Origin: Escherichia coli
Lineage (GTDB): Bacteria; Pseudomonadota; Gammaproteobacteria; Enterobacterales; Enterobacteriaceae
Length of the DNA stretch: 64,000 nucleotides
Reading direction: 5' to 3' (one strand)
Assembly: GCF_041248615.1 (NCBI RefSeq)
Contig: NZ_CP158426.1
In this document: piece by piece, positions 48,096-51,351 of the stretch
How the letters are laid out: the number at the start of each line of letters is the position of its first letter
Position numbering within the stretch: the first letter of the stretch is position 1
Notes under the pieces: model-generated
Databases searched by the model: none
Told to the model about the DNA's origin: nothing
Seen by the model: the letters and a program-made list of their open reading frames with translations, nothing else
Program-made: the position numbers and the translations under genes

Positions 48096-48337
48096 ATCTA
48101 TACCTGCCAGAGAGTTCATAAATATCTCGCCCATATCATTTTTGAATCTATGGAGAGAAAAGTACCCTTGTCGAATCTTTAAAGAAAGCGTATTTACGCA
48201 TCACTTTTTATTTTTGCGAGGCGTTTTCCAGATATGATGTAACAGTTGCAGTTATTATAAGTTCAAGTAAAACAGCCTTGTATTAATACCAGAATAAGGG
48301 CATCTGTTTTTTTATATTCAAGAATGAAAAATTTTTG

Positions 48338-48556: not shown

Positions 48557-48974
48557 TACCACCACCTTACATATATTACTCATTAATGTATGTGCGAAAA
48601 TTACGCCGAAAAATCATTTAAAAAAAGCGGATTTTTGCATGTCGTTTTGTTTTTGCGAGACGGCATCCAAAGATAATGTAACAGTTGCAGTTATTTCAAT
48701 TGTTACTCAAAAATGGTTTAGTAATAACCCAGGATGGTTTATTACTTTTAATTAAGCGGGGACACATCTACAGAAAAGAAACAACAAATAATAAGAATGA
48801 ATTATGGGTGCTATAAATATTTTATATTCAAGAATATTTTTTTGATTGGGTGTTCATTTGCTTCATCAGGATGGTGTACCCGAAAAAGTCAGCAGCTTTA
48901 CCGCACCAGGGTTTAAGGTGAAATCTACCATTCATAACTGACCGGTCAGTGCCGCACCAACCGGTCTTTAATTG

Positions 48975-49253
48975 TTAGTAGTAGTAAATTTGTGGATAAC
49001 AGTCCGGGAACCAGACGATTCCTTCTGGATCATCCCCCTGCATTACCCGATGACATTGGCGTCGATCATCTGCGCGACGGCGAAGCGTAGTATAGAGCCG
49101 CTTCCATTCATGATCGCCCGGTGTACTGTAGTTTACCCAACAATCCATTGAAGGGTGACGCCATTTACCTGTAAGTGTTGGGATCCCTGAATGATTATGT
49201 GGCTTCGCTTTACCATTACGATCCCTATCTTTACGCGTATTAAGCGTGGACAT
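48975..49253 (-). CDS. Hypothetical small basic His/Cys-containing protein (92 aa)
   Basis: ATG at 49253 preceded by CAGGAGACTAAAA (SD 8 nt upstream). MSTLNTRKDRDRNGKAKPHNHSGIPTLTGKWRHPSMDCWVNY...; no family recognised. Confidence 0.45.
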   Translation of the reverse strand: MSTLNTRKDRDRNGKAKPHNHSGIPTLTGKWRHPSMDCWVNYSTPGDHEWKRLYTTLRRRADDRRQCHRVMQGDDPEGIVWFPDCYPQIYYY

Positions 49254-49314
49254 TTTTAGTCTCCTGTTAAGAGTTCTAAAAATGTGCTTCCTTAAAATAG
49301 TTCATCATTTTCCC

Positions 49315-49527
49315 TTAATTCGCATAGCGTGCTTTTGCACGAATTTCCGATACGCGGGGACCATCATGATAGCGTCGATGCCCACACATCCAACAAGAAC
49401 AAATACAGGGAGTACGAAAGCAAATACCTGATGCTTTTTTGCTTCCATCGCCTGCAGTGCGATAACGGCAGCGGATTTTTTTTAATCGCGCCATATGATG
49501 GCGACGTTCAGCACGATTACGGGTCAT
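49315..49527 (-). CDS. Hypothetical small basic Cys-rich protein (70 aa)
   Basis: ATG at 49527 preceded by TCAGGAGTTTTACT (SD supplied by the R1 repeat hairpin). MTRNRAERRHHMARLKKIRCRYRTAGDGSKKASGICFRTPCICSCWMCGH...; no family recognised. Confidence 0.45.
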   Translation of the reverse strand: MTRNRAERRHHMARLKKIRCRYRTAGDGSKKASGICFRTPCICSCWMCGHRRYHDGPRVSEIRAKARYAN

Positions 49528-49532
49528 AGTAA

Positions 49533-49636
49533 AACTCCTGAGCAGGCGGCACTATGCCGCTTTCATAGGAGTTCTGAATGCTGGTGCTTTCTGTATGGCA
49601 TAACCATGCCTCTAACGGTTAAGTGCCTGCAGCACA
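49533..49636. repeat. ~104-bp repeat R1 (nested hairpin), direct copy of R2
   Basis: AACTCCTGAGCAGGCGGCACTATGCCGCTTTCATAGGAGTT... with outer stem AACTCCT/AGGAGTT and inner GCGGCA/TGCCGC; overlaps the 3' end of the antitoxin gene; ~85% identical to 51350..51453. Confidence 0.8.
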
Positions 49637-49902
49637 TGTTGCGGATCATTGGCAATCGCTCGCAGCAAAGCCTTTGCAGGCCCAGTCGGTGAACGTCGCC
49701 CCTGCTCCCAGTTACGCAACGTGTCTACGCTTACGGAAATAAGTTCGGCAAATTTAGATTGTGACAACCCTGAAGCGCGGCGTATTTCTTTGATTTTCAT
49801 AGCATCAACTTCAAAAGTCCGTGAAGGGTGTCGCGTTCCTTCAATAATTTCATTCATCTGGGCCATGCTGTGAGTCAACCGCTCAAAAAGTGCCTTATCC
49901 AT
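49612..49902 (-). CDS. HTH-XRE antitoxin (HigA-like), second gene of a toxin-first TA operon
   Basis: 96 aa; SD GAGGTGG upstream; start abuts the toxin stop. HTH segment IKEIRRASGLSQSKFAELISVSVDTLRNWEQGRRSPTGPAKALL. Confidence 0.8.
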   Translation of the reverse strand: MDKALFERLTHSMAQMNEIIEGTRHPSRTFEVDAMKIKEIRRASGLSQSKFAELISVSVDTLRNWEQGRRSPTGPAKALLRAIANDPQHVLQALNR

Positions 49903-50214
49903 TTACCACCTCGTATTTAACAACCGGAGCATTGCTTTTTCCTGGGGAGACAGATCATCTTTAATACCCTTACGATAAATAAGCAGTAATCTGATCTCAT
50001 AATGTTTAACCTGATGAAAGTAAATAACCCTGACACCAGCACGTTTCCCCTTTCCTCCTGACACCCATCGAACCTTTCTTAACCCACCAGTTTCAGGTAT
50101 TACCTCACCATAGTCAGGATTCAAGGCCAGGAAAAACTGAAAACGACTGAATTCATCGTCGGTCAGCAGTTTTTGAACATCTTCAGTAAAAATTTCCGTT
50201 TCGATGAAGAGCAT
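49903..50214 (-). CDS. RelE/ParE-superfamily toxin (HigB-like)
   Basis: 103 aa, MLFIETEIFTEDVQKLLTDDEFSRFQFFLALNPDYGEVIPETGGLRKVRWVSGGKGKRAGVRVIYFH...; resembles HigB-type toxins as recalled from memory. TATAAT sits immediately upstream of the ATG. Confidence 0.75.
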   Translation of the reverse strand: MLFIETEIFTEDVQKLLTDDEFSRFQFFLALNPDYGEVIPETGGLRKVRWVSGGKGKRAGVRVIYFHQVKHYEIRLLLIYRKGIKDDLSPQEKAMLRLLNTRW

Positions 50215-50430
50215 AATTATACGCCATTGGCTTAGAGTAACAATCCTTTTTGTACGTCATTGACGTACCCTTGAAACCACTAGCTTACTGATAGTGCTCC
50301 AGCAAAACCACGTCTCTGCCGGGTTTGTCTTTACATTTGCGAGGCGCTTTCCAGATTTTTCACGCCCGTGAATTTCCCTGTATCCATCCAGCAAAAACGG
50401 GTGTATAAAACTGTACATTCATACAGCAAA

Positions 50431-51351
50431 ATGAGTTCTACTATGGCACTGGAAAAAGGAATTGCAGAGTTAGTCGAAGAGTTTATCGCTGCGGGTCGCC
50501 CCTCATCGCGTCAACAAAGTATTGCGCAGCGCAGGGAGGGCTATATCGCCAGCGCTGTCCTTGCGGGTGAGACAGAAACGCGGGTAGATATTCAGACTAT
50601 CGAACTTGAAGGGATGATCTTACGAATAGTGTCACCGCTGAATGCCCCGACATTACTCCCGACGATAATTTATTACTACGGTGGCTGTTTTGTTAGCGGC
50701 GGGTTCGCAACTCACGACAACCAGCTGCGCCAGTTAGCCTATTACGGGCAATGTCGGGTTATTGCCGTCCAGTATCGGCTGGCACCGGAACAGACTTTCC
50801 CCGCCGCCCATGATGATGCGCAACGAGGTGCAGAATTAGTCTGGCAACACGCCGAACGACTCGGCGTTGATAAACAACGGATAACTCTTGCCGGTGACAG
50901 TGCGGGCGGACATCTGGCGCTGGTAACTGCTTTGCGATTAAAGCGTGCTGGCGAGTGGCAACCGGCACAACTCATCTTAATTTATCCCATGCTTGATGCG
51001 ACTGCGCATTTCGAAAGCTACATACGCAATGGTCACGATTACATCATCACACGCGACACTTTACTGAGCGGCTTTGAGATGTATCTGCCAGGCATTGAAC
51101 GCAGGCATCCTGAAGCCAGCCCTCTTTGGCGCGATGATTTCAATGGCTTGCCACCTGTACATATCATTACCGCTGAATACGACCCACTTTGCGATGAAGG
51201 TGAAGCGTTGTATCACCGCATGACAGGGCAAGGAGTGCAATGCACCTGCCAACGCTACCTTGGCGTTATCCACGGATTTTTTCAGTTAGGTGGTATCAGT
51301 GAGGCTGCGCGATCGGCGCTGCGGGATGTGGCCTGGAGAGCGGGAAGGTAA
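50431..51351 (+). CDS. Alpha/beta-hydrolase-fold esterase/lipase (HSL/Aes-like)
   Basis: Oxyanion-hole region YYYGGCFVSGG, nucleophile elbow GDSAGG, downstream catalytic Asp/His candidates. Start ambiguous: GTG 50368, ATG 50431 or ATG 50443, none with a clear SD. Confidence 0.7.
   Translation: MSSTMALEKGIAELVEEFIAAGRPSSRQQSIAQRREGYIASAVLAGETETRVDIQTIELEGMILRIVSPLNAPTLLPTIIYYYGGCFVSGGFATHDNQLRQLAYYGQCRVIAVQYRLAPEQTFPAAHDDAQRGAELVWQHAERLGVDKQRITLAGDSAGGHLALVTALRLKRAGEWQPAQLILIYPMLDATAHFESYIRNGHDYIITRDTLLSGFEMYLPGIERRHPEASPLWRDDFNGLPPVHIITAEYDPLCDEGEALYHRMTGQGVQCTCQRYLGVIHGFFQLGGISEAARSALRDVAWRAGR

Follow-up and report, generated by a model that had tools for sequence, protein, structure and literature searches.

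The closest described relative of the site discussed here is in Salmonella Typhimurium ATCC 14028. According to PMC8072944, the gene nlhH (STM14_4846) is 15.1-fold up with nalidixic acid and has one SOS box, 13 bp from its ATG, with a heterology index (HI) of 7.63; the nlhH ON subpopulation disappears when the strain is lexA(Ind-) or recA. The divergent gene higB-2 (STM14_4847) is 8.05-fold up under the same treatment, and the same box is given for it at 184 bp. The paper states that nlhH and higB-2 share the box, and cites uvrA/ssb as an analogous case; the genes that it reports as followed up in Salmonella are only those with a box within about 100 bp.

Two other reports describe the same region under the STM numbering. 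In the first, which has been retracted (PMC3868539), STM4032 is a single gene between two Hig-like toxin-antitoxin modules, beside fdhE. The second (PMC2225428) lists STM4030-STM4031, an operon that flanks STM4032 on one side, as responding to the mutagen MX. Given how the genes are numbered and that an opposite-strand arrangement is stated, we infer that STM4030-STM4031 is downstream of STM4032 and co-directional with it.

In E. coli, a single box is found near the start codon of sulA (sfiA), which encodes an inhibitor of cell division whose role in the SOS response is known. In the SOS toxin systems of K-12, tisB/istR, symE, hokE, dinQ and dinJ-yafQ, a toxin gene is near a LexA box, and the box overlaps the toxin's own promoter.

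In the window, the whole 64-kb stretch of E. coli DNA that was analysed, the genes fdoGHI-fdhE, yiiF, yiiE, two small hypothetical genes, the gene of a 96-aa antitoxin and that of a 103-aa toxin follow one another, all leftward. Right of the toxin are a rightward alpha/beta hydrolase gene, which we refer to as the esterase, and then fabY-dtd. The island examined here lies between yiiE and fabY. Its features around the site are the following:

49612-49902, minus strand: antitoxin gene, 96 aa, NadS/HTH_3 family (NCBIfam NF041265 at cut-off, and Pfam HTH_3).
49903-50214, minus strand: divergent toxin gene, 103 aa, HigB-2 family (Vibrio cholerae HigB-2 structures, E about 1e-19).
50221-50235, no strand: imperfect palindrome TACGCCA-T-TGGCTTA (TACGCCAtTGGCTTA), probable proximal antitoxin operator (near-invariant in six loci).
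50252-50268, no strand: perfect palindrome GTACGTCA-T-TGACGTAC (GTACGTCAtTGACGTAC), probable distal antitoxin operator (conserved motif).
50336-50355, minus strand: sigma-54 -24/-12-like element TCTGGAAAGCGCCTCGCAAA, outside the LexA operator (conserved in 16 of 18 genera).
50381-50386, plus strand: predicted -35 hexamer TATCCA (first T in 28 of 28 sequences, fifth C in 25 of 28).
50404-50409, plus strand: predicted -10 hexamer TATAAA of the esterase promoter (TATAA in 24-28 of 28 distinct orthologous sequences).
50409-50428, no strand: LexA-type (SOS) box, full 20-mer AACTGTACATTCATACAGCA (HI 5.72, and conserved position).
50443-51351, plus strand: esterase gene, 302 aa, RefSeq WP_001306651.1, hormone-sensitive-lipase-type alpha/beta hydrolase (Pfam PF07859, Abhydrolase_3, E = 4e-68).

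The original prediction placed a palindrome of the form CTGT-N8-ACAG between the toxin and the esterase genes, and this is what the DNA contains: the window, checked directly, reads aACTGTacattcatACAGca there, and the core CTGTACATTCATACAG at 50411-50426 is an exact match with the fixed 16-bp geometry. The core is 16 nt from the esterase ATG at 50443, and the end of the 20-mer is 14 nt from it. The toxin start, which had been put at about 200 bp from the box, is the ATG at 50214, at a measured distance of 197 bp.

A matrix score of the 20-mer had been proposed as a check. We used the heterology index of Berg-von Hippel/Lewis and derived its matrix from the 18 E. coli LexA boxes published in PMC3009722. 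The HI of AACTGTACATTCATACAGCA is 5.72, which is mid-range for proven E. coli operators: the leave-one-out values of the latter run from 0.58 to 12.8 with a median of about 7 (n = 18), and the candidate would place about 7th of 19 alongside them. It is also the only low-HI site of the 64 kb, the second-best 20-mer on either strand having an HI of 13.4. Its sequence is nearly that of the sulA operator, TACTGTACATCCATACAGTA, to which it is identical at 17 of 20 positions, including an unusual C at core position 6; the outer flanks of the esterase-side box are however weaker (A at position 1 and C at position 19). Judged from its sequence, the 20-mer is a LexA operator of the usual gammaproteobacterial type, and its place over a predicted promoter is also the usual one. 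The window has one other CTGT-N8-ACAG, CTGTTGGCCTACACAG at 13109-13124, with a GC-rich spacer and an HI of 13.4, which is not LexA-like.

The predicted esterase promoter consists of the two hexamers listed above, separated by a spacer of 17 bp. Its -35 hexamer, TATCCA, matches TTGACA weakly (3 of 6 positions), and reads TTCCCA or TTTTCT in other genera, with TT[CT][CT]C[AT] as the conserved form; this promoter was missed by a scan for consensus promoters. The LexA 20-mer and the predicted -10 hexamer overlap by one base, the last of the hexamer being base 1 of the 20-mer, and the predicted transcription start, at about 50415-50417, falls within the left half of the box. The box would therefore span the predicted start from the last -10 base onward, and because it covers this start and abuts the -10 hexamer, a LexA dimer bound to it should block RNA polymerase at the esterase promoter. 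We consider it highly probable that this 20-mer (50409-50428) functions as a LexA operator on the promoter of the gene at 50443-51351. LexA binding and SOS induction in E. coli are what we infer here, together with the transcription start and the promoter hexamers. Two candidate start codons had been named for the esterase, at 50431 and 50443. The latter is the start in the RefSeq annotation, and it is the one that we retain, since the ATG at 50431 reads ATA in about 1200 genomes, which carry the second major E. coli allele (see below).

A scan with the esterase protein, limited to one genome per species, gave 24 orthologous loci (69-83% amino-acid identity) in Citrobacter, Pseudocitrobacter, Superficieibacter, Lelliottia, Klebsiella, Kosakonia, Franconibacter, Enterobacter and several MAGs. 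In 24 of these 24 loci, the best 20-mer of the 300 bp upstream of the gene is LexA-type, with an HI of 3.95-9.5, and ends 12-15 bp before the ATG; the next-best 20-mer of each locus of about 6.9 kb has an HI of at least 11.65. Adding three Salmonella variants and the second E. coli allele brought the set used for footprinting to 29 loci, with 28 distinct sequences. In all 29 loci, which come from at least 10 genera plus Salmonella and two E. coli alleles, there is a LexA-type box 14-17 bp 5' of the esterase ATG, right after a TATAA -10 element.

The 28 distinct sequences have in common the pattern CTG.A.A....A.ACAG, with CTG, an A at both position 5 and position 7 of the core, and A....ACAG in the right half. 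Core position 4 is only ever T or G, which is also the case in known boxes. The central spacer is free to vary (ACATTCAT, ATATCCAA, ATAAATAT, ATAGATAT and others). Invariant LexA bases with a drifting spacer are the pattern expected from selection for LexA binding beside the -10 element; since the LexA bases are fixed and the spacer is variable, we favor selection over simple recent common ancestry as the probable origin of this conservation.

The conservation of the box does not follow that of the toxin-antitoxin pair. When the window proteins were compared by tblastn to the orthologous loci, most genera proved to have no toxin-antitoxin pair, and the box is still there; in these genera, the esterase gene comes directly after fdhE or yiiF. 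The box is thus retained beside any left neighbor, be it the HigB-2/HTH pair, a PIN/RHH pair, yiiF or fdhE. Being kept whatever gene adjoins it on the left, the box belongs to the esterase.

The content of the slot between fdhE and the esterase gene is itself variable. It holds a PIN/RHH pair in some Salmonella and a HigB-2/HTH pair in other Salmonella and in E. coli, and is empty of toxin-antitoxin modules in most Klebsiella, Enterobacter and Kosakonia. In the Salmonella enterica loci, the variable toxin-antitoxin slot is at positions ~2170-2800. Judging by these contents, the slot looks like a hot spot of toxin-antitoxin gain and loss beside a fixed SOS promoter.

The Salmonella enterica contigs that we fetched contain fdhE, genes for an HTH antitoxin of 96 aa and a toxin of 103 aa, the esterase gene and fabY; the antitoxin, the toxin and the esterase are 84%, 65% and 76% identical to the proteins of the window, respectively. 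Their box, CACTGTATATTTACACAGAT, has an HI of 7.04; 14 nt separate it from the start codon of the esterase and 196 nt from that of the toxin, a slight mismatch with the published distances of 13 and 184 bp. The names, neighbors, geometry, HI and map position together make it a well-supported inference that Salmonella nlhH/STM4032 is the esterase described here. The two loci occupy the same fdhE-fabY slot and each have a single box, which precedes the esterase ATG by 13-14 bp and is about 190 bp away from that of the toxin. Their HI are similar (7.0-7.6 for the Salmonella nlhH box and 5.7-6.8 for that of E. coli), bearing in mind that our absolute values come from the 18-site matrix of PMC3009722 and not from the original Lewis matrix, and are not directly comparable with published ones. 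On the contrary, the sequence of the box differs (CACTGTATATTTACACAGAT versus AACTGTACATTCATACAGCA), and so does the downstream side of the esterase, where the published description of LT2 has a second pair, sehAB, and the window has a convergent 614-aa gene. Among three protein clusters, we found no Salmonella contig with the LT2/14028 arrangement, in which there are modules on both sides; other arrangements were found. Induction and its dependence on LexA and RecA have been measured in Salmonella only.

Our literature search on the E. coli site or on a LexA-regulated esterase returned only the Salmonella paper PMC8072944, and no paper on the E. coli site, on its loss from K-12 by deletion or on conservation across at least 10 genera. 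The box of Salmonella nlhH is therefore what was known; what is new is the site in E. coli, its loss from K-12 and its conservation in at least 10 genera independently of toxin-antitoxin neighbors.

Within E. coli, the 2-kb region around the site has a match in 3407 of 5426 complete genomes, over at least 80% of its length in 2599 of them. The 40 bp around the box are found by blastn in 2599 of the 5426 genomes, about half; 1350 of these matches are identical, 1221 have 95-99% identity and 28 have 90-95%. A search by megablast gave an impression of poor conservation (1452 genomes, versus 2574 for a control 40-mer), which is an artefact of the 28-bp word combined with a common allele that has two SNPs; both SNPs are outside the core, and blastn restored the 2599 genomes. 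This second major allele, present in about 1200 of about 2600 genomes, has two mismatches within the 40 bp in every example listed and in both that were fetched. One of them, A50409G, changes the -10 hexamer from TATAAA to TATAAG, as well as the outermost base of the 20-mer, and raises the HI from 5.72 to 6.82; the other turns the ATG at 50431 into ATA, and the core is untouched. O104:H21 ATCC BAA-178 is an example of a strain with A50409G. It may be that basal or induced expression differs between the two E. coli alleles.

The situation is different in K-12 MG1655, where only about 850 bp separate fabY and yiiE. Direct comparison shows that about 49010-53270 (4.26 kb) is deleted: this removes the small hypothetical genes (the first one in part), the toxin-antitoxin pair, the LexA box, the esterase gene and most of the 614-aa gene, whose first ~22 codons are kept beside fabY. 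Since the locus is deleted, neither the classical studies of the K-12 LexA regulon nor ChIP in K-12 could see the site.

As regards the other genes of the island, the 614-aa ORF (51520-53364, minus strand) is convergent with the esterase gene and has no match in Pfam, NCBIfam or the sequences of the PDB. It contains CKSAKDR, a C-x5-R motif, which we take to resemble the active site of phosphoinositide phosphatase effectors of the SopB/IpgD type. In strain NRZ14408 a transposase interrupts this gene, and O104:H21 lacks it, fabY coming directly after the esterase gene in the latter. The two small hypothetical ORFs between yiiE and the antitoxin gene (48975-49253 and 49315-49527, minus strand, 92 and 70 aa) have no family match; they are probably real genes, because they are conserved in K. 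spallanzanii and Pseudocitrobacter vendiensis with 59-70% identity.

The toxin has no match in Pfam and NCBIfam and was identified only via solved structures. The order of the genes, with the toxin first and the HTH antitoxin immediately downstream, is that of HigB-2/HigA-2-type modules. The two palindromes upstream of the toxin gene are related to one another, 32 bp apart and within about 55 bp of the toxin ATG. Their motif, TACGyCAwTGrCGTA, is kept in the loci that have this toxin-antitoxin pair and is unrelated to the LexA box, which lies at least 140 bp beyond; the palindromes are probably antitoxin operators. The only promoter called by the consensus scan, TTGTTA-16-TATAAT on the minus strand, was rejected as the toxin promoter: it ends 1 nt before the ATG, leaves no leader and is not conserved, being kept in neither Salmonella nor K. 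spallanzanii.

The sigma-54-like element between the box and the toxin gene belongs to a small series. The motif TGGnnnnCGnCTCGCA (for example, TGGAAAG-CGCC-TCGCA) has 3 matches in the window, all on the minus strand, when 0.1 is expected; they are at 50338-50353, 48654-48669 and 48215-48230, upstream of the toxin gene, yiiE and yiiF, respectively, and keep the GG-N10-GC spacing of sigma-54 -24/-12 promoters. These copies may be a set of sigma-54 promoters. Alternatively, the copy near the toxin gene may be a plus-strand site for an activator of the esterase promoter, at about -72, with a weakly CRP-like TGCGA-N6-TTCCA. A literature search on sigma-54 control of yiiE/yiiF gave nothing relevant, its single match being on RpoS promoters.

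That the palindrome is a LexA operator has to be weighed against other explanations. The original prediction warned that a core match is expected by chance about once in such a window. This is correct for the 8-base core, of which 0.78 is expected per window and 2 are found, and this chance-level frequency would fit with a chance match, or with mere AT-rich promoter sequence, to which LexA does not bind. The warning greatly understates, on the other hand, how rare the full 20-mer is: by exact enumeration with the base composition of the window, sites with an HI of 5.72 or less are expected 0.0036 times per 64-kb window and 0.28 times per 5-Mb genome (1.2 times if the background is 60% AT), and none of 200 first-order Markov windows reached 5.72, the best simulated value being 6.43. 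We discarded a chance match on the basis of the full-site score, expected only 0.004 times per window, and of the simulated windows. The position of the box and its LexA-specific bases are moreover kept in the 29 loci while the spacer drifts, and the induction of the Salmonella counterpart depends on LexA and RecA (PMC8072944), which makes a match without LexA binding very improbable. Less probable still is that the palindrome is the operator of another regulator, for example the NadS/HigA-type antitoxin or the RHH proteins YiiE and YiiF. An intergenic palindrome beside genes for DNA-binding proteins would invite this reading, but the palindromes associated with the antitoxin carry a different motif, the box persists without the antitoxin and, in some genomes, without yiiE/yiiF as neighbors, and its invariant positions are exactly those specific to LexA; we therefore discarded it too. 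The palindrome is, from its score and its conservation, very probably a real LexA binding site.

Whether LexA bound there also represses the HigB-2-type operon is a separate issue, since a shared divergent operator is compatible with an operator of the esterase promoter. The original prediction leaned this way: it pointed to precedents for SOS control of toxin-antitoxin loci and suggested that the island might be inducible by DNA damage. The LexA-type box has held up, but SOS control in this framing is not supported, since the box adjoins the predicted -10 element of the esterase and is kept without the toxin. SOS-controlled E. coli toxins are well precedented (a review table lists tisB, symE, hokE and dinQ), and a possible weak leftward promoter, TTGCTG-16-TATACA, can be read by eye over the box. 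In the K-12 systems the box is on the toxin's side, unlike here, where it overlaps the predicted esterase promoter and is retained in loci that have no toxin. It does not appear to lie over a toxin promoter: the toxin ATG is 197 bp away, the operator palindromes of the toxin are at a distance of 140 bp or more, and the sigma-54-like element offers a separate candidate promoter between the two. Its retention where the toxin-antitoxin pair is absent or different indicates that selection would come from the esterase. Besides, induction of type II toxin-antitoxin systems under stress can be indirect, via antitoxin turnover. The 8-fold induction of Salmonella higB-2, said to share the nlhH box, is the only published result in favor of a shared operator; higB-2 is nevertheless beyond the limit of about 100 bp that was set for follow-up, and was apparently not included in the lexA(Ind-) test (PMC8072944). 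The uvrA/ssb pair also consists of two divergent genes with one box between them, but there the box is 24 and 80 bp from the ATGs (Salmonella table of PMC8072944), within reach of both promoters, whereas here the distances are 14-16 and 197 bp and other operators intervene on the toxin side. Because the toxin has its own probable operators near its start and the box is at least 140 bp off, the layout of the locus lends no support to a toxin directly controlled by the SOS response, and we regard a dual role of the box as unlikely. If the toxin responds to DNA damage, as the Salmonella RNA-seq suggests, the route is probably indirect or via another promoter.

The operator of the esterase promoter would control an enzyme, which is unlike the case of sulA with its cell-division inhibitor. 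From its sequence, the product is probably a family IV (hormone-sensitive-lipase-type) esterase, the family to which its relatives of solved structure belong. Its scores against NCBIfam equivalogs are all under cut-off, and well under it for LipP1, chloramphenicol hydrolase and Aes. The nucleophile motif GDSAGG is present. The HGG of the oxyanion hole reads YGG (YYGGCF, residues ~76-81) in 19 of 19 E. coli-type sequences, versus HGG in the 114 other homologs in which the motif was found. This YGG appears to be a lineage-specific substitution, which might alter or weaken catalysis.

Almost all of the work that defined the E. coli SOS regulon was done in K-12, a strain that does not have this locus. 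It is conceivable, although we would only put it forward tentatively, that membership of the esterase in the enterobacterial LexA regulon is ancestral and family-wide and was overlooked owing to the deletion in K-12, that its SOS control has been kept in E. coli, Salmonella, Klebsiella, Enterobacter, Citrobacter, Kosakonia and others, and that it may play a real physiological part in the survival of genotoxic stress, of a chemical kind rather than in DNA repair. If this is true, the esterase may for example hydrolyze an ester-containing genotoxin, an antibiotic or a damaged metabolite. The analysis also corrects a tempting reading of the locus, since the neighboring HigB-2 pair is not visibly wired to LexA. 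The locus provides a candidate conserved SOS gene that has no obvious link with DNA repair and is simple to test.
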